Below, in pieces: positions 17,751 to 40,083 of a DNA stretch of 64,000 bases. A program made the position numbers and the translations under genes. Position 1 is the stretch's first letter. Each line of letters starts with the position of its first letter. A model generated the notes under the pieces. It did no database searches. It had not been told where the DNA came from and saw only the letters and a list, made by a program, of their open reading frames with translations. Source of the DNA: Patescibacteria group bacterium (GTDB lineage: Bacteria; Patescibacteriota; Minisyncoccia; Phycocordibacterales; PALSA-1337); the NCBI GenBank assembly GCA_028865095.1, contig JAGWLA010000003.1, positions 23,243-87,242 on the forward strand, written 5' to 3'.

Positions 17751-18872
17751 TTATTTGCCCAGCACGAGCGCCGCGATGTTCGGGAAGATCACGGTGTAAT
17801 CGCCGAATATCTGGACGCCGAAGGCGTCGGTGTCGAGCTTCTCCCAGGTGATCTTCTCCTTGAATCCGGCGCCGGAATATGAGCCCGCGCTCATAGGCGA
17901 CAGATAGATCTCGATGAAGCCCGCCCACGAGCGGATCATCCTCTCCTGGTCTTCCAGCGTCTGCGCATACAGGAAGTCTTTCTTGAGATGCGGCACGACG
18001 CAGATCGGGAAGTCGGCGGCGATGCCTCCTCCGAGCTGGAGGAAGGCGAGCCCTTTCGGGGTCGCATTATCAATATACCATTCGGCAAGGCGGTGCATGT
18101 AACGGAAGGAATGATGCACGATGTCGGGATCTATGGGGACGTCCAGCTTGTACAGCGACAGGAACGGATGGTTGTTATCGTAACAAGCCTGGGCGAATAT
18201 ATTCCCCATGGTGGAATCCTCGACCCCGCCGACGAATACCGCGACCTTGTGCTTCCATGCCTGGTAGAGCCAGCAGTCTTCCGGATCGGCTGTCGGGTCG
18301 AATCCGATCATGTCGCGCTCGAAGAGCTGGAAGAAGTATTCATGCCAGAGCAGCGGTTTGCCTCTGGCTTCGGCTTCTCGCCAGAGCTTCTCAAGCTTCG
18401 GCAATATGATCCTGACCGATTCATCTTCTGGCAGGAATGTGTCAGTGATGCGCCGAAGGCCGGCATTCCCGAGCTCCTTCTCTTCCTGGCGCGTCAGCTC
18501 CTCGTATGCCGGGATATATGCGTAGTGCTGGTTGGCGACGAGCCGATAGAGGCTCTCCTCGAGATTCGCCCCGGTCACCGATATGGCGGCGATCTTTCCC
18601 GCCCGGATCATCTCGCTGATGACGATCCCTTGCTGGAAGGACGACCCTGCGCCGGACATGGAGAGGAATATCTTCCCTCCGCCGTCGCAGTGCGCTTTGA
18701 GCCAAAGGCCCGCATCTACGGTCCGGCCGCCGTTGCAATGGCGCATCGTATCGACGAGCCAGTTTGATACCGGCGTCTCGGGTGTAGGCGTATATCGCCG
18801 CTCTCCCGTCGTTATCTTGGTGCGAAGCCCGGGGCTCAAGCCCGCGAGCTTATCGTGAGTGGTTTCGCTCAT
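17751..18872 (-). CDS. Deoxyhypusine synthase-like protein (DHS/homospermidine synthase family)
   Basis: A 373-aa ORF aligns along its length to the DHS family (NAD-binding 'MSGAGSSFQQGIV', 'GGVEDSTMGN', 'LGGGIAADF'). Confidence 0.75.
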   Translation of the reverse strand: MSETTHDKLAGLSPGLRTKITTGERRYTPTPETPVSNWLVDTMRHCNGGRTVDAGLWLKAHCDGGGKIFLSMSGAGSSFQQGIVISEMIRAGKIAAISVTGANLEESLYRLVANQHYAYIPAYEELTRQEEKELGNAGLRRITDTFLPEDESVRIILPKLEKLWREAEARGKPLLWHEYFFQLFERDMIGFDPTADPEDCWLYQAWKHKVAVFVGGVEDSTMGNIFAQACYDNNHPFLSLYKLDVPIDPDIVHHSFRYMHRLAEWYIDNATPKGLAFLQLGGGIAADFPICVVPHLKKDFLYAQTLEDQERMIRSWAGFIEIYLSPMSAGSYSGAGFKEKITWEKLDTDAFGVQIFGDYTVIFPNIAALVLGK

Positions 18873-27881: not shown

Positions 27882-28745
27882 TCACGCGGGCTTATAGCCG
27901 TAGCCCGCGCAGAAATCGCGGAAGGGCATCTCGCGCCCGCCTTCAGGCACGACCCTCTCGATCGCGAGCTTCCCGTCCTTGAACGACGCCGAGGCGATCT
28001 TGACGCGCAGCTTCTTCCCGCCCTTGTCGATGAAGAAATAGGCGGTCGGCCATTCATGGTAGGCCTGGATCTTGCGGAAATCGAGATAAGGGTCGGCGGC
28101 CAAGTCGATCAGGCCGTCCTCTTTCGATATCTTCCTGGTATAGGTGGCTTTCGAGCGGTCCTGCTCTTTCTCCTCGAGGGCGCCGGCGACCCACCGGGGC
28201 AGAGTCTCGGCCAGCAGCCGTCCGCCTTCGCGCGCCATCCTCTCCTCGAACTCCTCGTACGTCGGCCATTCGCCGACGGCCACGGCTTTTTGCGCCACGA
28301 TCGGCCCCTCGTCCATCTTCTCGTCGATGCGCATGATGGTGACGCCGGTCTCTTTGGCGTCGTCGAGCATGGCCGACTGCAGGGGCGACGCGCCGCGATA
28401 GGCGGGCAGAAGGGACGGGTGGACGTTCAGAGTGCGATGGGGCGGCAGGTCGATGATGGCCCCGGGGATGATCTTCCCGTATGACGCGACCGCGAAAGCC
28501 TCGTACGCGCCGCTTTTGAGCCGTTCGGCGAAGGCGGCGTCGAGCCGGGCCGGCTCGAGGACCGGGATGCCGCGCTGCGCAGCCCAGGCTTTCACCGGCG
28601 TCGGGGTCAATGCCAGCTTCCGGCCGGCGGGCTTGTCGGGCGCCGTCACCACGGCGGCCGGCGCCAGGCCGGCCTTCTCGAGCTCGTCGAGGACGAGGAC
28701 CGAGAAGCGGGAGCTGCCGAAGAAAGCGTAGCGCGGAGCGTTCAT
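27882..28745 (-). CDS. fmt: Methionyl-tRNA formyltransferase
   Basis: 'YAFFGSSRFSVLVLDEL', an SLLP motif 'NVHPSLLPAYRGASPLQ' and a C-terminal domain. The start was set at MNAPRY, overlapping the def stop by 4 nt. Confidence 0.9.
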   Translation of the reverse strand: MNAPRYAFFGSSRFSVLVLDELEKAGLAPAAVVTAPDKPAGRKLALTPTPVKAWAAQRGIPVLEPARLDAAFAERLKSGAYEAFAVASYGKIIPGAIIDLPPHRTLNVHPSLLPAYRGASPLQSAMLDDAKETGVTIMRIDEKMDEGPIVAQKAVAVGEWPTYEEFEERMAREGGRLLAETLPRWVAGALEEKEQDRSKATYTRKISKEDGLIDLAADPYLDFRKIQAYHEWPTAYFFIDKGGKKLRVKIASASFKDGKLAIERVVPEGGREMPFRDFCAGYGYKPA

Positions 28746-29281
28746 GGCTTCTGGAGGTCGGCGATCTCCTCGTCGCTCATCTCCCAGAGCTCGCGCGCCT
28801 TGTCGGTGAAGAGGATTCCTTCGAGGTGGTCGCATTCGTGCTGGAAGATCTGGGCGAGAAGGCCGGAAGCGCCGCGCTCGACCCGGGCGCCGGTCTCGTC
28901 ATATGCCTTGAGGGAAGCCCGGGTGGAGCGCTTGATCTTGCCGTAGAGCCAGCGCACGGACAGGCAGCCTTCCTCGACCTCGCGCTTGTCGCGGGAGAGC
29001 TTGACGATCTCGGGGTCGATGAACACGAGGTCCTTGTCGCCGCCCTTGTAGCTGCGGTCCGCCTGGCTCAAGAGCGCGCCGGAGACCACGAATATGCGGA
29101 GGGATTCGCCGATCTGGGGAGCGGCAAGGGCCACGCCGTCTTTCTGGGCGTGCATGGCGGCTTTCATGTCGGCGATGACCTTCTGGATGCGCGGCGACGC
29201 GATCTCTTCGGCGGGCACCTTCTTGGCCTTCGCCCGCAGGATCGGATCGTCGCGCTGGACGATGTCTCTCATGACGGACAC
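28742..29281 (-). CDS. def: Peptide deformylase
   Basis: 'GVALAAPQIG', 'EGCLSV' and 'QHECDHLEG' motifs. Confidence 0.95.
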   Translation of the reverse strand: MSVMRDIVQRDDPILRAKAKKVPAEEIASPRIQKVIADMKAAMHAQKDGVALAAPQIGESLRIFVVSGALLSQADRSYKGGDKDLVFIDPEIVKLSRDKREVEEGCLSVRWLYGKIKRSTRASLKAYDETGARVERGASGLLAQIFQHECDHLEGILFTDKARELWEMSDEEIADLQKP

Positions 29282-29285
29282 TATA

Positions 29286-31208
29286 TCAAAGCAGGCTCTC
29301 GGGGTCTATCTTGACCGTCACCCGGGGGGGAAGAAGGCGCAATTTGGCGACGAGGCCGTGGTCGGGCCATTCCTTGCGCGGGACCTTGATCAGGCCGTGG
29401 ATGACGGAGTTCCCGCGCGCGGCGGCGGTGAAGGCGGGGAAGACGTCGACCTCGCGGGGCGACGCGAGGGCCTGGATCTCGCCCATCTCTTTGGCGATGG
29501 CCTCTTTCTTGCCTTCCAGGGTGATCTTGATGAGCGTCTCATACGGGGGGTAGCCGAACTTCTTCCGGTCCTCGGCGGTGCTCCGGTAGAAATCCGACAA
29601 GTTGCCTTTGAGGGCGTACTCGAAGACGCGCTCCTCGCTCCTGCGCGTCTGGACGATGAACGTGCGCTCGGCCAGCGAGCGGAGCCTCGCCAGGGCGTAC
29701 ATGATGCGCTCCTCGACGCGGAAGTCGGGCAGGGCGAAGAGCGAATCGAGCGACGCCACTGCCGCATGCTCGACCCGGTCGGCGATATGGGAAAGGGCCA
29801 CTTCGGTGCCGATCAGGACGCCGCCCGGCTTGGCCTTGAAGCGGGCCAAAGCGTCGGCGATCCTCGCTTCGGTGGCGGTCGAGTCGGCGTCCACCTTGAA
29901 AGGCTTCAAGCCGGGGAAGCGCTCCTTGAGCTCCTTCTCGACCAGCTCGATGCCGACGCCGAGGGGGGACAGGCGCCAGCCGCCGCAGGAAGAGCAGGTC
30001 TCGTCGGCGCTGCGGCGCTCGCCGCAGACGTGGCAGAGGAAGAAATTCGCTCCGGAACGCCCCGCGTGGAGGACGACCGGCGCCGCGCAGCGGCGGCAGG
30101 AGACGATCGTCTGGCAGTCGTCGCAGACGGTCACCGGCGAGAGGCCGCGCCGCGAGGCTAAAATGAAGAGGCGCGTGTTCTCCTCGATGTTCTTCGCCAC
30201 CAGGGCCTCGAGCTCCGGCGAGAGGGCCCGGAACGAGCCGCCGGCCGCCGCCGCGGCGCGCATGTCGACGAGGGCGTCTTTGGCGGTCGAGATCGAGCGC
30301 CATTTGAACGGGGAGCCTTCGGCGGCGTCCTTCGCCTCGAGGCGCTCGAGCGTCTCGGCCCTGACGAGGATGTCGGCGAGATAGACCGCTTTGCGGGCCC
30401 GGCGGGCGGCCGTCTCGATGGCGTGGCGCATGTCGACGTACGGGGCGCGCTTCGACACCCAGCCGCGGCCGTTCTCGCGCTCGATGACGACGCTGTCGAT
30501 GTCTCCGCGGGGCAGGACCGCGAACGGGCCGCTCGCCACGATCACCACCGGGTGGTCGGTGTCGGCCGCCGTCCGCCAGGCGTCGACGACTTTCTTGGCC
30601 GTCATGCCGGGATGGAACATGAAGATATAGCCCTCGATGCCTTTCTCGAGCGCCGCGTAGAGCTGGCGGGCGTCTTCGGCGGTCGGGAGATGGAACGCCA
30701 CCGAGCGCTTGCGGGCGAATTCCTGGCGGACGAGGCTGCGCCAGGCGCTCAAACGGTCGGCGTCGTCGCCCTGGACGACGCAGGTCTCGTCCATGGACGG
30801 CCCTTGCCGGGCCGATGGGCCCGCGGTCCCCAGCAGGCTGGCTTGGACGGGCAGAGGGGGAGGGATGCGCCCGGCGCTCTCGAGGACCGTCTCGGAGACA
30901 AGCGACCGGAGCACGGCTCCCGTCGTCGCGGCATAGTGCTCGGCGAGCGCCGCGCACGCCTCGAGGAAGGCGGCAGGGAAGAACGCCGAGGCTTTGACCG
31001 CCCCCAGCTTCCGTATCTCGAAAGGGGCGCTCTTGATCTCGGCTTTGAGGTCGGCCGCAGGGCGGGAGCCGGAGACGACGGCGTGGATGGCCTTGGACCG
31101 GAGCGGCACGGTCACGATCGCGCCCACCGGCACGTCGGACGCGGTGAAATACGAAAGCTCCGGGGCCACCTTGGACCGGGTGATGGGGATGACGGTGATG
31201 ATGTTCAT
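29286..31208 (-). CDS. priA: Primosomal protein N' (PriA) homolog with apparently degenerate Walker A and B motifs
   Basis: PriA-type paired Cys4 zinc region 'CDDCQTIVSCRRC...CHVCGERRSADETCSSCGG', a C-terminal domain and 'DRLSAW' helicase-lobe landmarks. The expected GxGKT reads 'GDDAD' and DEEH reads 'EREN' (aligned by eye). Confidence 0.75.
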   Translation of the reverse strand: MNIITVIPITRSKVAPELSYFTASDVPVGAIVTVPLRSKAIHAVVSGSRPAADLKAEIKSAPFEIRKLGAVKASAFFPAAFLEACAALAEHYAATTGAVLRSLVSETVLESAGRIPPPLPVQASLLGTAGPSARQGPSMDETCVVQGDDADRLSAWRSLVRQEFARKRSVAFHLPTAEDARQLYAALEKGIEGYIFMFHPGMTAKKVVDAWRTAADTDHPVVIVASGPFAVLPRGDIDSVVIERENGRGWVSKRAPYVDMRHAIETAARRARKAVYLADILVRAETLERLEAKDAAEGSPFKWRSISTAKDALVDMRAAAAAGGSFRALSPELEALVAKNIEENTRLFILASRRGLSPVTVCDDCQTIVSCRRCAAPVVLHAGRSGANFFLCHVCGERRSADETCSSCGGWRLSPLGVGIELVEKELKERFPGLKPFKVDADSTATEARIADALARFKAKPGGVLIGTEVALSHIADRVEHAAVASLDSLFALPDFRVEERIMYALARLRSLAERTFIVQTRRSEERVFEYALKGNLSDFYRSTAEDRKKFGYPPYETLIKITLEGKKEAIAKEMGEIQALASPREVDVFPAFTAAARGNSVIHGLIKVPRKEWPDHGLVAKLRLLPPRVTVKIDPESLL

Positions 31209-31261: not shown

Positions 31262-32782
31262 TTATAGGTCCCTGAAAGTCTCGATCTTGGCGCCGATGGA
31301 ATTCAGGCGCGCCGCGAGGTCCTCGTATCCGCGGTTGATGTTATAGACGTTGCGCAGGATGGACGTGCCGGGCGCGGCGAGCATGCCGATCAGGATGATG
31401 ACCGAGGGGCGCAGGGCCGGCGGGCATATGATCTCGGCGGTCTTGAAGCGGGCCGGGCCTTTGACGTAGAAGCGGTGGGGGTCGGCCAGGATGGTGTCCA
31501 CCCCGAGCTTGTCGAGCTCCTTGTAATAGATGGCGCGCTCCTCGTACGACCAGTCATGGATGAAGGTCTGGCCTTCCGCCACTGCGGCGATGACGGCGAA
31601 GAAGGGGAGGTTGTCCATGTTCAGGCCGGGATAGGGGAGGGCGTGGATCTTCTCGTCGAGGGCGACGAGCTTCGAAGGATGGGTCTTCAGGTCGACGAGC
31701 TTGACCCGGCCGTTCAAGCCCGCATAGCTCTTCAGGATGTCGTAGCGGAAGCCCATCTTCTCGAGCTTGAGGAGCTCCATCTCGATGAAATCGATCGGGC
31801 AGCGCTCGATGACGATCGACGAGCCGGTGACGATGGCGGCGGCGATGAGCGACATGGCTTCGATGGGGTCTTCGCCGATGTGATATTCCACGGGGGCGTC
31901 GATCCGCTCGACGCCGTGGACGGTGAGGGTGGAAGTGCCGATCCCTTCGATTTTGACGCCGAGCTGCTCGAGATAGAAGCACATGTCCTGGACCTGGTAG
32001 TTGGCCGACGCGTACTTGATGATGGTGGTGCCGGGGATCTTGGCGGCGGCCATGAGCACGGCTTCGGTGACGGTGTCGCCGGCCTCATAGAGGACGATCT
32101 CGCTCGGGCGGAGCCCCGAATGGGAGACGTCGTAATGGCGCGAGCTCGCCTCGATCGAGATGCCGAGCTTCTCGAGGGCGTAGAAGTACGGCTTGACCGT
32201 GCGCGAGCCGAGGCGGCAGCCGCCCGCTTGGGGGATGGAGAAAGCCTTCTCCCGATGGACGAGGGAGCCGATGAGCATGATGCAGCTCCTGGTCTTGGCG
32301 GCCGCGTCGTAGTCGATCTCGCCGAGGCGGAGCTTGGCGGGAGGGGTGATGGTCAGGTCGTTCCCGCTCCATGAAGCGCCGACGCCGATGGACTGGAGGA
32401 CTTCGACGATCCTGAATACCTCCTCGATCTTCGGGGCGTTCTTGAGCACGGTCGGGCTCTCGTTCAGCAGGGACGCGCAGAGGATGCCGACGGCGCCGTT
32501 CTTCGAGGTTCGCACGGTGATGTTCCCGCGGAGCTTCCGGCCCCCTTCGACCTTGAAATTGATCGTGCCGCCTTTCGACAGGCTGACGATCTCGCGGTCG
32601 AGGGCGGCGCTGATCCGGGCCAGCGTCTTGGTGGAGAGGTTCTGCTCGCCTTTCTCGATGCGGGCCACCGCGCTCTGGGTGGTGCCGACTTTCTTGGCGA
32701 GCTCGGCCTGGGTGAGGCCGCGGTCTTCGCGGAGGCGGGCGATGAGGGATCCGATATGTTCGAGCGATCGGTCTTTTTTCAT
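31262..32782 (-). CDS. murA: XRE-family HTH domain fused to UDP-N-acetylglucosamine 1-carboxyvinyltransferase
   Basis: Residues 1-65 are a Cro/C1-type HTH ('LTQAELAKKVGTTQSAVARIEKGEQNLSTKTLARISAAL'). Residues about 75-506 are full-length MurA ('KLRGNITVRTSKNGAVGILCASLL', catalytic 'PQAGGCRLGSRTV', C-terminal 'NINRGYEDLAARLNSIGAKIE'). Confidence 0.85.
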   Translation of the reverse strand: MKKDRSLEHIGSLIARLREDRGLTQAELAKKVGTTQSAVARIEKGEQNLSTKTLARISAALDREIVSLSKGGTINFKVEGGRKLRGNITVRTSKNGAVGILCASLLNESPTVLKNAPKIEEVFRIVEVLQSIGVGASWSGNDLTITPPAKLRLGEIDYDAAAKTRSCIMLIGSLVHREKAFSIPQAGGCRLGSRTVKPYFYALEKLGISIEASSRHYDVSHSGLRPSEIVLYEAGDTVTEAVLMAAAKIPGTTIIKYASANYQVQDMCFYLEQLGVKIEGIGTSTLTVHGVERIDAPVEYHIGEDPIEAMSLIAAAIVTGSSIVIERCPIDFIEMELLKLEKMGFRYDILKSYAGLNGRVKLVDLKTHPSKLVALDEKIHALPYPGLNMDNLPFFAVIAAVAEGQTFIHDWSYEERAIYYKELDKLGVDTILADPHRFYVKGPARFKTAEIICPPALRPSVIILIGMLAAPGTSILRNVYNINRGYEDLAARLNSIGAKIETFRDL

Positions 32783-33242: not shown

Positions 33243-33500
33243 AGCGCGTATCATCCTGCCGCGCGGGCCTCCCCGTTCTGCCTATCGATGGGTTTTTGTA
33301 GCCGTGGGATCCCACGGCTACAAAAACTAGCGTGCATGACCGGCACATCGTGCGCCCCAAAGTGAACTCCCAAAGTGAACACGGACAATCAAGCACAATC
33401 AAAAGAGCCCGTTTCGATGGAGCGCGCCGGCGCCCCGGCCCTTCGCGGCCGGAGCGGGTTCTTCTCCTCCCGCACCCTATATGCTATAGTCGCCTCACTT

Positions 33501-34514
33501 ATGAGCATATTCTCCTCGAAGCTCGGCATCGACCTCGGCACGGCCAATACGCTCGTTTTCGTGCCCGGCAAGGGCATCGTCCTGAACGAACCGTCGGTCG
33601 TGGCCGTCTCGGAGGTCGACAAGCGCGTCATGGCGGTCGGCAACGAGGCCAAAGAGATGGTCGGCCGCACGCCCGATTCTATCATCGCCTATCGCCCCAT
33701 GAAGGACGGGGTCATCGCCGATTACCGGGTGACCGAGGCCATGCTCCGCTATTTCATCGACAAGTCCCTCGGCAGGTTCTCCCTCTGGAAGCCCGAAGTG
33801 ATGGTCTCCGTGCCTGCGGGCGTGACTTCGACCGAGCGCCGCGCCGTCATCGAGGCGGCTCTCCGGGCGGGCGCCAAGAACGCCTACGTGGTCAAGGAGC
33901 CCATCCTGGCGGCCATCGGAGCCGGCATCCCCATCCAGGAGGCCCGCGGCCACATGGTGGTGGACATCGGCGGCGGCACCACCGACGTGGCGGTCATCTC
34001 CCTCGGCGGCATCGTCTCTTCGACGTCGGTCAAAGTGGCGGGCACCAAGCTCGACGCGGCCATCGCCGACCATATCAAGAAGAACTTCAACCTGGCCATC
34101 GGCGACCACATGTCCGAGATCATCAAGATCCAGATCGGCTCCGCCATCCCTCTCGACCAGGAGCTCGCCATGACCGTTAAGGGCCGCGACTTCATCTCCG
34201 GCCTGCCGCGCTCGACCGAGATCAAGACCAATGAGATCGTCAAAGCCCTGGCGTCCCCGCTCCGCGACATGATCAAAGCCATCAAGGACGTCCTCCAGGA
34301 GACGCCGCCCGAGCTCGCGGCCGACATCATCGACCAGGGCATCACCATGACCGGCGGCTCGTCCCTCCTGCGCAACCTGCCCGAGCTCGTCTTCCGCCGC
34401 ACGGGCGTCAAAGCCCAGCTCGCCGAAGACCCCTTGCTGTGCGTGGTCAAAGGGACCGGCATCGCCCTCGACCACCTCGACGTCTACAAGAAGGCGATCG
34501 TCAGCAAGCGGTAG
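33501..34514 (+). CDS. mreB: Rod-shape-determining protein MreB (paralog 1)
   Basis: 'GIDLGTANTLVFV', 'EPSVVAV', 'VVDIGGGTTDVAVISLGG' actin-fold motifs. The start was set at MSIFSSKLG. Confidence 0.9.
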   Translation: MSIFSSKLGIDLGTANTLVFVPGKGIVLNEPSVVAVSEVDKRVMAVGNEAKEMVGRTPDSIIAYRPMKDGVIADYRVTEAMLRYFIDKSLGRFSLWKPEVMVSVPAGVTSTERRAVIEAALRAGAKNAYVVKEPILAAIGAGIPIQEARGHMVVDIGGGTTDVAVISLGGIVSSTSVKVAGTKLDAAIADHIKKNFNLAIGDHMSEIIKIQIGSAIPLDQELAMTVKGRDFISGLPRSTEIKTNEIVKALASPLRDMIKAIKDVLQETPPELAADIIDQGITMTGGSSLLRNLPELVFRRTGVKAQLAEDPLLCVVKGTGIALDHLDVYKKAIVSKR

Positions 34515-34526
34515 TATAATGAGGGC

Positions 34527-35204
34527 ATGCTCTCGCATCACGCCAACCTTCTGATCGGCGGCGCTTCCGCCCATGACGGGCTCGTCTCGGCGCTCGAGAA
34601 GAGCCGGAAAGCCCGCGTCCGCGGCGACCCCGACTTCATCGACCGGGCATACGGGACGTTCGCTATCGGCGACGCCCGCGACCTGAAAGCGCTGGCCGCG
34701 ACCAGGCCGGCAGGGAAGGACGGCAGGAAGATATTCGTCCTGACGATGGACGGCATCACCCTGGAAGCCCAGAACGCCCTGCTGAAGCTCCTGGAAGAGC
34801 CGCCGGAGCGCGCGCATTTCTTCCTGATCGTGCCGTCTGCGCATCTCCTTCTGCCGACTGTGCTGTCGCGCCTCTCGCTCATGGACGCGCCCGCAGGAGT
34901 CGGCGCCCTTTCCCGGAAAGAGGCGGCCGATCGCGGCCCGTCCGCGGAAGCGCGCGCATTCCTGGCCATGGCGGTCCCCGAGCGCCTCGCCGCCGCCAAG
35001 AAGCTCGTCGACGCCGTCTCCAAGGAGAAGAAGACGAAGCGCGAGGCCATCGGCTTCCTCGACGCGGTCGAAGCGGCCGTCCGCGAGCGAGGGGTCAGAG
35101 AGAACGTCCGCGCGCTCGAGGCCATCGAAGCCGCCCGGAGATATGCCGACGACCGGGCGCCGTCGCTGAAGATGCTCCTCGAATATGTCGCTTTGAGCGT
35201 TTAA
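34527..35204 (+). CDS. DNA polymerase III delta-prime-like subunit (short, no Walker A)
   Basis: 'NALLKLLEEPPERAHFFLIVPSAHLLLPTVLSRLS' matches the clamp-loader delta-prime sensor region. Confidence 0.55.
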   Translation: MLSHHANLLIGGASAHDGLVSALEKSRKARVRGDPDFIDRAYGTFAIGDARDLKALAATRPAGKDGRKIFVLTMDGITLEAQNALLKLLEEPPERAHFFLIVPSAHLLLPTVLSRLSLMDAPAGVGALSRKEAADRGPSAEARAFLAMAVPERLAAAKKLVDAVSKEKKTKREAIGFLDAVEAAVRERGVRENVRALEAIEAARRYADDRAPSLKMLLEYVALSV

Positions 35205-38198: not shown

Positions 38199-39308
38199 AT
38201 GGCTAAGAAAGGAGCATTCACGGGCATAGCGGCGGGCTTGAAAGGGGTGAAAGGCTGGAAGGACAGGCTCTTCTCGGGCGCGTCCAACGACATCGGCATC
38301 GACCTCGGCACCGCTAACACGCTCGTCTACGTCCGCGGCAAAGGCATCGTGGTCAACGAGCCTTCGGTGGTCGCGGTCAACCAGAAGACCGGGCAGGTGG
38401 TGGCCGTCGGCAGCACCGCCAAAGAGATGCTCGGCAGGACCCCCACCCATATCGCCGCCGTCAGGCCGCTCGTCGACGGCGTCATCTCCGATTTCGAAGT
38501 GACCGAAGAGATGCTCTCGTATCTCATGAAGCGCGCGTCCGAGTATCTCCCCAAGCGCTTCCTCGGCCCGCGGGTGGTGATCGGCGTGCCCTCCGGCGTG
38601 ACGAACGTCGAGGTGAGGGCCGTCCGCGACGCCGCCCGGAACGCCGGCGCCCGCGAGGTCTATATCGTCGAGCAGCCCATGGCCGGAGCCATCGGCATCC
38701 GCTTGCCGGTCCATGACCCGGTGGGCTCGATGGTCATCGACATCGGCGGCGGCACCACCGACATCGCCGTCATCTCCCTCGGCGGCATCGTACGCTCGAA
38801 GAACCTCAAGATCGCCGGAGACAAGCTCAACAACGACATCATCTCCTACATCCGGAACGAGTTCAAGATACTGATCGGCGACACCACGGCCGAGCAGGTC
38901 AAGATCGCCGTCGGCGCCGTCGTCCCCGACGAGCCGCTCGAGACCACCATCCGCGGCCGCGACCTCATCACCGGCTTGCCGCGCGAAGTGGTCATCACCG
39001 ACAGCGACATCCGCGAAGCCATGAGCCAGTCCATCGAGACCCTGGTCGAAGCCTCGAAGGAGGTCCTCGAGACCACGCCCCCCGAGATCCTGTCCGACGT
39101 CATGCGCCGCGGCGTCTTCCTGGTCGGCGGCGGCGCGCTCATCAAAGGCCTCGACGCTCTCTTGTCCGAGACGCTGAAGCTCCCGGTGACCGTGGCCGAC
39201 GACCCGCTCACCGCCATCGCCCGCGGGGCCGGCATCATCCTCGAGGACCTCGACGGCTTCCGTTCCGTCCTCATCGAAAGCGAAGATGACCTACCTTCGG
39301 CAGCGTAG
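38199..39308 (+). CDS. mreB: MreB paralog 2
   Basis: 'GIDLGTANTLVYV', 'EPSVVAV', 'VIDIGGGTTDIAVISLGG'. Confidence 0.85.
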   Translation: MAKKGAFTGIAAGLKGVKGWKDRLFSGASNDIGIDLGTANTLVYVRGKGIVVNEPSVVAVNQKTGQVVAVGSTAKEMLGRTPTHIAAVRPLVDGVISDFEVTEEMLSYLMKRASEYLPKRFLGPRVVIGVPSGVTNVEVRAVRDAARNAGAREVYIVEQPMAGAIGIRLPVHDPVGSMVIDIGGGTTDIAVISLGGIVRSKNLKIAGDKLNNDIISYIRNEFKILIGDTTAEQVKIAVGAVVPDEPLETTIRGRDLITGLPREVVITDSDIREAMSQSIETLVEASKEVLETTPPEILSDVMRRGVFLVGGGALIKGLDALLSETLKLPVTVADDPLTAIARGAGIILEDLDGFRSVLIESEDDLPSAA

Positions 39309-40083
39309 CGCGCCCGGCAGGCGCAGGATCGGCGCGGCCGCCGCGGCCGTCGCGGCGCTCGTCCTGGCCGTGGCTCTCGTCCAATGGAGGGCGCCGCGCT
39401 TCTTCCCGGCGATCGCTTCCGCGGTGGCAGACCCGTTCTGGCGCGTCCGGTTCGCTTTCCAGAACGGCGCTTTGGAGAGCCCCGACGAGCTTCTCGCCGA
39501 GAACGCGTCCCTGAAGCTCCAGGTCGCCGCCCTCGACGGGCGCTTGGCGAGCTCGACTGCGGCGCTCCTGGAAGCGGAGAACGCCGACCTTCTCGGCTTG
39601 CTCGGGAGGGCCACTACGACCCGGAGCGCGTACACGGCCGCCGCGGTCCTCGCCCGTCCGCCGTTCTCTCCGTACGACCGGCTGATCCTCGACCTCGGCA
39701 GCGACGACGGCGTCTCGACCACCACGCTGGTCTATGCTCCCGGCGGCGCCCTCATCGGCAGGGTCACCGGCGCATTGGGGCATACGTCGGTCGCGACGCT
39801 CTTCTCGTCGCCGGGCCAATCATATCCTGTGCTCATCGGGCCGCAGAGCCTGCCGGCCACGGCCGTCGGCAAAGGGGGAGGGCACTATTCGGCCCAGGTC
39901 CCGCACGGCTCCGGCATCGCGCCGGGCGACGCTGTCAGCGACTCGTCCCTCCATGACCGGGCATTCGGCACGGTCGTCTCCGTGACCACCGACCCCTCTG
40001 ACCCGTTCGATTCGGTGCTGTTCGCCCTGCCCGCGGACCCGTATGGCCTCCGCTGGGTCCTTTTAGATATCAGTAAGCCATAG
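39286..40083 (+). CDS. mreC: Rod-shape-determining protein MreC
   Basis: N-terminal TM, coiled-coil 'ENASLKLQVAALDGRL', then a beta-rich periplasmic domain. Located directly after mreB. Confidence 0.65.
   Translation: MTYLRQRSAPGRRRIGAAAAAVAALVLAVALVQWRAPRFFPAIASAVADPFWRVRFAFQNGALESPDELLAENASLKLQVAALDGRLASSTAALLEAENADLLGLLGRATTTRSAYTAAAVLARPPFSPYDRLILDLGSDDGVSTTTLVYAPGGALIGRVTGALGHTSVATLFSSPGQSYPVLIGPQSLPATAVGKGGGHYSAQVPHGSGIAPGDAVSDSSLHDRAFGTVVSVTTDPSDPFDSVLFALPADPYGLRWVLLDISKP

Follow-up and report, generated by a model that had tools for sequence, protein, structure and literature searches.

Can a protein with the build of PriA, in which every motif for ATP hydrolysis appears to be missing, still serve in replication restart? 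This question is raised by a gene in a 64,000-nt stretch of DNA (hereafter the window; positions 23,243 to 87,242 of the forward strand of contig JAGWLA010000003.1, GenBank assembly GCA_028865095.1) from a Patescibacteria group bacterium. The gene is listed among the open reading frames (ORFs) at 29286-31208 on the minus strand and is complete, running from ATG to TGA and encoding 640 aa. An earlier note made from the letters of the sequence had described its product as a PriA homologue with degenerate Walker A and Walker B motifs, which would be dead as an ATPase and helicase but might still recognise forks and load a DnaB-type helicase. Our analysis suggests that the gene is, quite probably, the orthologous priA of Patescibacteria (candidate phyla radiation, CPR; Paceibacteria/Parcubacteria-type) and that its product is a pseudohelicase.

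Loss of the ATPase motifs

PriA of E. coli K-12 (L001:2613-4811) was used as the alignment reference, and the two proteins were compared by HMMER pairwise alignment, by MAFFT, by L-INS-i together with four canonical PriA proteins, and by a profile. At the former Walker A motif (30741-30773, minus strand) the protein reads Q146-G-D-D-A-D-R152-L-S-A-W156, where E. coli PriA has G224-V-T-G-S-G-K230-T-E-V-Y. Three independent alignments (HMMER pairwise, the family profile against K. pneumoniae PriA, and L-INS-i) agree in placing R152 on the Walker A lysine K230. From there, R152-P175 lies on E. coli K230-P253 without gaps, and the sequence GSGKT falls on D149-A-D-R152-L153. In the P-loop, the three glycines are replaced by Q, D and D, the lysine by arginine and the threonine by leucine, while at motif Ia the residues P175-T stand opposite E. 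coli P253-E.

The earlier note had seen 'GDDAD' (147-151) at the Walker A position. It was right that no Walker A motif is present, but its register was two residues off. Its landmark, 'DRLSAW' placed on E. coli 'ERLSAW', was mistaken: ERLSAW (284-289) aligns to 'KKVVDAW' (205-211), and DRLSAW (151-156) is a chance look-alike which forms the start of the helix after the former P-loop. A register returned by MAFFT --auto, which leaves the E. coli P-loop opposite a gap of 14 residues, was likewise anchored on a coincidental 'SAW'; it was rejected, since HMMER pairwise, profile and L-INS-i favour the ungapped alignment of R152-P175.

The former Walker B motif with the start of the aromatic-rich loop (30459-30491, minus strand) reads V240-V-I-E243-R-E245-N-G-R-G-W250 opposite E. 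coli I-V-I-D320-E-E-H-D-S-S-Y327. Here HMMER pairwise, MAFFT and the profile place E243, R244, E245 and N246 on D320, E321, E322 and H323, exactly as proposed when 'VVIERENG' was put on the DEEH position. The position of the DExH catalytic glutamate is occupied by an arginine (R244). With R152 on K230 and EREN on DEEH, the predicted loss of the Walker A lysine and of the Walker B DE pair is borne out.

Further motifs are affected. At the position of motif III (30366-30380, minus strand), L277-A-D279-I-L281 replaces L-G-S356-A-T358, so that SAT has become DIL. At the former motif VI (29661-29696, minus strand), A505-L-A-R-L-R-S-L-A-E-R-T516 faces L-Y-T-Q580-V-A-G-R584-A-G-R587-A; compared to canonical PriA proteins there is a deletion of five residues, QxxGRxGR is absent, and both arginines (the arginine fingers) are lost. 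Motif V is retained, with G467-T-E corresponding to E. coli G-T-Q. A profile alignment of motifs I, II and VI had been recommended, in case intact motifs were situated elsewhere; it relocated no intact GxGKT or DExH, and revealed that motif VI, and motif III as well, are lost. In line with this, a motif scan of the entire 640-aa protein found neither a GK[ST] P-loop nor DE.[HD]. Judged from its sequence, the protein is devoid of all residues needed for ATP binding and hydrolysis.

Conservation of the replaced residues in the lineage

An exhaustive HMMER search of 1.84 billion cluster representatives yielded 1192 clusters (50% identity) at E<=1e-30. Three sets of sequences were considered: 119 homologues with 55-68% identity, the best 150 of the 1192 clusters with 32-57% identity, and further members from profile searches. 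From these sets, 390 sequences of at least 550 aa were aligned with hmmalign, and some columns were counted in 151 members. The source labels are Patescibacteria group, Paceibacterota/Parcubacteria, Taylorbacteria and Minisyncoccia, with one record from Magasanikbacteria. The best 150 cluster representatives are nearly all 620-700 aa long and in the same degenerate state.

All 119 close homologues read Q-G-D-[DE]-x-D-R at the former Walker A and I-E-R-E-N-x-R-G-W at the former Walker B motif. In the large alignment, none of the 390 members has a P-loop at the Walker A column; position 152 is R in 389 of them, and position 146 is Q in 137/151. At the former Walker B motif, position 243 is E in 339 and D in 51 of the 390 sequences, position 244 is R in 233 and K in 69 (R/K 302) and E in merely 17, position 245 is E in 376, and position 246 is N in 166, S in 162 and H in 18. 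Position 279 in the former motif III is D in 133/151, and in the region of motif VI R510 alone is moderately conserved (116/151). In addition, the family has invariant motifs of its own without canonical counterpart, for example K302-W-R-S305.

Since the same substitutions are found in 390 homologues, they are more than chance, and sequencing error, which the earlier note had considered for the case that relatives have canonical motifs, is excluded: close and distant relatives alike are without them. The near-invariant replacement residues indicate that the replaced positions are under purifying selection. An artefact of sequencing or assembly, or a decaying pseudogene of a canonical priA, is extremely improbable. 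The unusual motifs could be taken as a hint of it, and nothing further; against it speak the intact ORF of 640 codons with a GC content at third codon positions of 0.91, as for real genes in the surroundings of ~62% GC, the recurrence of the substitutions at near-invariant positions in hundreds of independent assemblies, and the high-confidence structure model described below.

Several sequence matches resembling P-loops were rejected. In 17 relatives the pattern GK[ST] is matched falsely, by 'FARGKSV'; this stretch follows helix alpha1 and is the counterpart of E. coli 'AQGKQAL'. 'GIGKT' at 180 in P0254 and 'GAGKT' at 69 in P0145 are located off the Walker A column.

The residues that are present raise the possibility of a still active ATPase or helicase with non-canonical residues, in which R152 would stand in for the lysine while E243 and E245 would act as the metal-binding and catalytic acids. 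Indeed, of the three positions that are acidic in Walker B, two have remained so, the position of the lysine is basic, and 'GTE' of motif V is retained. Moreover, DEEH is kept in 5 of the 390 sequences, all from one 90%-identity cluster of metagenome sequences (P0240 and P0275-P0278). The Walker A motif of this cluster is degenerate like that of the rest ('QAGDDDRDAAY'), and the cluster may stand for an intermediate stage of ATPase-site decay or for a reversion. We nevertheless regard an active enzyme as very unlikely. With Q, D and D instead of the P-loop glycines, the strongly acidic loop would repel phosphates; the substitution K230R alone kills the ATPase activity of E. coli PriA (PMC5778457); most members have Arg, Lys, Asn or His at the position of the catalytic glutamate; and motif III and both arginines of motif VI are lost, the latter together with the five-residue deletion.

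Identity as a PriA homologue and domain layout

The protein keeps the body plan of PriA, consisting of a 3'-end-binding domain (3'BD), two RecA-like lobes and a Cys-rich region (CRR), along with a C-terminal domain (CTD). A phmmer search against the sequences of the Protein Data Bank (PDB) returned PriA chains only, with K. pneumoniae PriA (4NL4) at E 9e-28, and the family profile matched K. pneumoniae PriA at E 5e-70. The NCBIfam priA equivalog TIGR00595 was matched with E 6e-54 and 183.4 bits. In Pfam, the PriA 3'-DNA-binding domain was the sole match above threshold, the zinc ribbon remaining below it. The family is 22-27% identical to canonical PriA proteins, which are 33-40% identical among themselves. 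When applied to canonical PriA proteins, the family HMM gave 270-278 bits for those of Bacteroidota, Cyanobacteriota and Bacillota and 226 bits for that of E. coli. Because of these scores, the sequences identify the Patescibacterial family as a fast-evolving offshoot of ordinary PriA. A protein from a metagenome-assembled genome at NCBI, KGI69_02285 (Patescibacteria group bacterium), is identical to the product of the gene and is labelled 'hypothetical protein'. The same is true for most NCBI records of the family, a few being named primosomal protein N', which is the name used by IMG.

A structure was predicted with AlphaFold2 (AF2) from a 117-sequence alignment, and the resulting model has a mean pLDDT of 89.1 and a pTM of 0.88. 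In a Foldseek search against the PDB, the best nine matches were all PriA (E 1e-35 to 4e-26, TM 0.66-0.76), and unrelated SF2 helicases began only at E 1e-8. The TM scores to the PriA structures 8fak, 6dcr, 6dgd and 4nl4 were 0.72-0.76.

The N-terminal 3'BD (aa 1-105; 30894-31208, minus strand) was recognised by PF17764 with 24.0 bits (cutoff 22.7). This Pfam family is also annotated in most homologues (precomputed), the domain is confident in the AF2 model, and the Foldseek alignments to PriA span the whole chain, the 3'BD included. In its pocket, Y20 is invariant and stands, by eye, opposite E. coli Y18. The 3'BD is followed by a short linker of low AF2 confidence (aa 106-140; 30789-30893, minus strand), in which the pLDDT drops to 55-57 at residues 121-140. 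Here E. coli PriA has its winged-helix (WH) domain (residues 109-181; PMC5778457), and the spacing between the 3'BD and the Walker A position is 35-37 residues versus ~115 in E. coli PriA. The best TM match is 6dcr_A, a WH-deleted E. coli PriA (TM 0.75/0.76), which fits the short linker. Thus, the protein has no WH domain, unlike PriA of E. coli and K. pneumoniae.

RecA-like lobe 1 (aa ~141-325; 30234-30788, minus strand) is catalytically degenerate. It was delimited by AF2 secondary structure and Foldseek, with an approximate boundary taken from the E. coli alignment, and Foldseek matches it to PriA and, less strongly, to other SF2 helicases. In the model, a strand at 142-146 is followed by a helix from residue 149, so that the former P-loop lies partly inside a helix. 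According to alignments, AF2 and Foldseek, lobe 2, including the CRR insert, comprises aa ~326-525 (29634-30233, minus strand) and keeps the PriA-typical motifs 'RRG' (353-355), 'LGxG' (416-419), 'GTE' (467-469) and 'PDFR' (494-497).

The double Cys4 region already noticed in the earlier note was confirmed by alignment to the E. coli CRR (aa 359-412; 29973-30134, minus strand). C362, C365, C371, C374, C392, C395, C405 and C408 lie on the cysteines of E. coli PriA, are invariant or at least 90% conserved in the family, and form the predicted zinc sites; the Pfam model Zn_ribbon_PriA matches this region weakly (E 0.025, below cutoff). The CTD, whose presence had also been proposed, is found at aa 526-640 (29289-29633, minus strand) by profile alignment, by Foldseek and in a confident part of the AF2 model. 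The profile alignment extends to position 720 of the tagged 747-residue K. pneumoniae PriA chain, corresponding to ~residue 705 of the native protein.

Genomic neighbourhood and orthology

The gene is the first of a priA-def-fmt unit. The gene def for peptide deformylase (28742-29281, minus strand; Pfam Pep_deformylase, E 9e-44) starts 4 nt past the stop codon of the priA-like gene. It is followed by fmt for methionyl-tRNA formyltransferase (27882-28835, minus strand; Pfam Formyl_trans_N, E 1e-37). The longest ORF of fmt shares 94 nt with def and is matched by Pfam only from aa 36 onwards; the true start of fmt is probably located downstream of the first candidate start codon. Among 80 related GTDB loci compared, 70 were informative for the position of def and fmt: def is directly downstream of the priA-like gene in 56 of these 70, and fmt is downstream in 62. 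In Bacillus velezensis, the canonical priA is found in the order coaBC-priA-def-fmt-rsmB. Together with the fold and the domain order, the order priA-def-fmt supports orthology with PriA.

Alternatively, the protein could be a diverged paralogue with another job, while a canonical PriA, with its gene at another place in the genome, carries out replication restart. Such a gene could lie outside the ~64 kb that are visible, and the family is indeed far more diverged from canonical PriA proteins than these are from each other. We consider a paralogue unlikely: upstream of def-fmt the gene takes the place that the canonical priA has in Bacillus, and IMG calls the family members the primosomal protein N' of their genomes. 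Paralogues are rarely kept in small CPR genomes. Further, when E. coli PriA and the query were each used in tblastn, a second PriA-like sequence was seen neither in the window nor in 842 kb of DNA at the 80 related loci; the test is a weak one, as most of each genome remains unseen.

The tight coupling to def-fmt, with a gap of 4 nt, could also point to a protein recruited away from restart, for example as a general DnaB loader at the origin or for a role linked to the translation genes with which it would be co-transcribed. The invariant family-specific motifs such as K302-W-R-S305 would be in agreement with a new role, and among the 30 window ORFs scanned there is no gene for a helicase loader. 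However, in Bacillota the same linkage is found with a canonical, restart-active PriA and therefore says nothing about a new role, and the DNA-binding modules 3'BD, CRR and CTD are all kept. Recruitment to another process thus appears quite unlikely.

The gene directly upstream of the priA-like gene (31262-32782, minus strand) encodes a fusion protein in which an N-terminal HTH_3 domain of XRE type (aa 9-65) is joined to MurA (NCBIfam PRK09369, with 317 bits exceeding the cutoff). A MurA homologue is also present near priA in most related loci, but there on the opposite strand.

Comparison with known PriA proteins

A PriA pseudohelicase has already been described. In PriA of D. radiodurans, the Walker A lysine is changed to arginine and motifs I and II are degenerate, and the protein neither hydrolyses ATP nor unwinds forks (Lopper, Boone & Morrow 2015, PMC4504706). 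It binds ssDNA with a Kd of ~215 nM, fork DNA with a Kd of ~109 nM, and also its cognate DnaB (PMC4504706). The Patescibacterial protein resembles the PriA of Deinococcus-Thermus in its degenerate motifs I and II, in the arginine at the position of the Walker A lysine, in the lineage-wide loss, and in that it belongs to an organism without recognisable PriB and DnaT. The outcome would also be the same, namely fork and ssDNA binding and helicase recruitment without ATPase and unwinding, although in the present case it is predicted from sequence. The differences are that it stems from another phylum, that acidic residues take the place of the glycine-rich loop as a whole, that motifs III and VI are lost, and that the WH domain is absent.

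With canonical PriA (E. coli, K. pneumoniae; PDB 4NL4, 6DGD, 8FAK; TIGR00595) it shares the fold, the domain order, the motifs 'RRG', 'GT[QE]' and 'DFR', and, as in Bacillota, the order priA-def-fmt; it differs by the absence of Walker A, DExH, SAT, QxxGRxGR and the WH domain and by its low identity (22-27%). E. coli PriA K230R, encoded by priA300, is without ATPase, helicase and translocase activity, but supports restart in vivo and in vitro via the PriA-PriB pathway (PMC5778457). It assembles primosomes, and growth is near wild type (PMC5778457). This variant also has an arginine at the position of the Walker A lysine; in contrast to the protein described here, it differs from an intact helicase by a single engineered substitution and needs PriB and DnaT, which are known only in some Proteobacteria.

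Another degenerate PriA was encountered in Tsukamurella tyrosinosolvens (Actinomycetota). Its primosomal protein N' (WP_068739079.1, NZ_LR134460.1, L083:2440-4431; PRK14873 type) contains neither GK[ST] nor DExH; the Walker A position is taken by 'QALPGEDWAARL' and that of DEEH by 'LWDDGDES'. As in the Patescibacterial protein, the motifs are lost while the FDY motif of the 3'BD and the cysteines of the CRR are kept. However, the Tsukamurella protein is only a distant relative of the Patescibacterial family, with 67 bits from the family HMM (canonical PriA proteins 226-278), the replacement residues are different, and def-fmt is not located downstream. Judging by this one sequence, Actinomycetota apparently harbour a third degenerate PriA lineage, and loss of the motifs of PriA seems to be recurrent. 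We found no statement on actinobacterial PriA motif loss in our literature searches.

In a review from 2017, the helicase activity of PriA was described as conserved 'except in Deinococcus'. Full-text searches of the literature combining PriA with Patescibacteria, candidate phyla radiation or Parcubacteria retrieved nothing on motif loss in PriA of this group; in a Nature paper from 2023, priA appears only as the neighbour of a novel gene family in the phylum UBP6. The Patescibacterial lineage is thus apparently a large, undescribed, more degenerate and WH-less one. Deinococcus is thereby joined by a second lineage of far greater size, which makes up a major share of the uncultured Patescibacteria and strongly conserves the protein although none of its ATPase motifs is left. 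A known exception is hereby widened into a major bacterial radiation, which will not greatly surprise the specialist.

Proposed function of the Patescibacterial PriA

Based on these comparisons, we propose that the PriA-like protein would bind abandoned forks or D-loops via the 3'BD, the surface of the helicase core and the CRR, and would serve as a static platform for recruitment of the replicative helicase DnaB. DnaB could be recruited directly, as has been reported for PriA of D. radiodurans, or via a partner, and the lagging-strand arm would be left un-unwound by the PriA-like protein. Most likely, by analogy with E. coli PriA K230R and D. radiodurans PriA, the protein is dead as an ATPase and helicase but recognises forks and loads the helicase, as the earlier note had predicted. 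As for the vestigial nucleotide pocket, it is probably stabilised by R152, E/D243 and E245 joined in a permanent network of salt bridges; this is proposed by analogy, because the Walker A lysine and the Walker B aspartate contact each other in empty P-loop NTPases.

Several points weigh against a restart function of an orthologous PriA pseudohelicase. The loss of ATPase activity is deduced from the sequence and a predicted structure. The score of 183.4 bits is below the equivalog cutoff of TIGR00595 (230.35 bits), which explains the label 'hypothetical protein' in the NCBI records. The search for a second priA in this organism covered ~64 kb of a genome of probably 0.6-1 Mb, and the window contains no gene for DnaB, a loader or SSB among the 30 ORFs scanned for helicase-loader genes. 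Furthermore, by eye and in a low-scoring profile alignment, the pocket of the 3'BD is kept only in part, D17 being replaced by S19 and G37 by R37. Along with the loss of the WH domain, this may make fork recognition or substrate preference different from that in E. coli.

The finding speaks for fork recognition and helicase recruitment, rather than unwinding, as the essential functions of PriA. At the same time, the family offers a natural minimal PriA, without WH domain and ATPase motifs, for structural work. It is tempting to go further and to speculate that PriA became an obligate scaffold, independent of ATP, in the common ancestor of a clade of CPR/Patescibacteria that is very large (>1000 clusters at 50% identity), and that this occurred independently of Deinococcus-Thermus and Actinomycetota. 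The pocket, instead of merely decaying, would then have been rebuilt as a conserved acidic/arginine latch (Q146, D/E149-151, R152, E243 and E245) that serves a structural or regulatory purpose in its own right, and the WH-less PriA would perhaps be the sole factor placing DnaB on forks in minimal genomes lacking PriB, PriC and DnaT. We put forward this combined scenario tentatively, as a possibility that we would rather doubt than expect to hold in all its parts. If true, it would mean that the helicase activity of PriA was lost repeatedly across bacteria and is not at the core of replication restart.

Other features of the window

Several further observations were made in the window. A low-GC island is located at ~22000-26000 (GC 0.47-0.53 versus ~0.62) and may have been horizontally acquired. 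It contains a gene for a 685-aa SF2 helicase (ResIII and Helicase_C, RadD/type-I-R-like; 22466-24523, minus strand) with four C-terminal 'integrase repeat' units (PF14882), and a gene for a second sigma-70 factor with a long N-terminal extension (24665-25978, plus strand).

A split tRNA gene was found at 26503-27137 (minus strand), with its 5' half at ~27137-27104 and its 3' half at ~26549-26503. The acceptor, D, anticodon and T stems pair by eye, and the anticodon loop is interrupted by a group I intron of ~550 nt (Rfam RF00028, 56 bits, 26556-26806). Within the intron lies an ORF of HNH-like type (26658-27107), with the pattern CxxC...HH...CxxCH. ARAGORN made no call for this gene; based on putative splice sites, the anticodon may be GTT (Asn). 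Another tRNA gene, tRNA-Leu(taa), is adjoined by a deoxyhypusine-synthase-like gene (17751-18872, minus strand) in this bacterial genome; its match to PF01916 has an E-value of 1e-25 and is well below the NCBIfam equivalog cutoffs.

Finally, two full-length MreB paralogues (33375-34514 and 38199-39308, plus strand), both with ~447 bits to PF06723, and MreC (39286-40083, plus strand) are encoded within 7 kb. Between the two MreB paralogues lie genes for a delta'-like protein, RRF, an M50 protease and a class II aminoacyl-tRNA synthetase. The first of these (34527-35204, plus strand) encodes a short, 225-aa DNA polymerase III delta'-like protein, whose partial holB/delta' match is far below the cutoffs (TIGR00678, 57 versus 181 bits).

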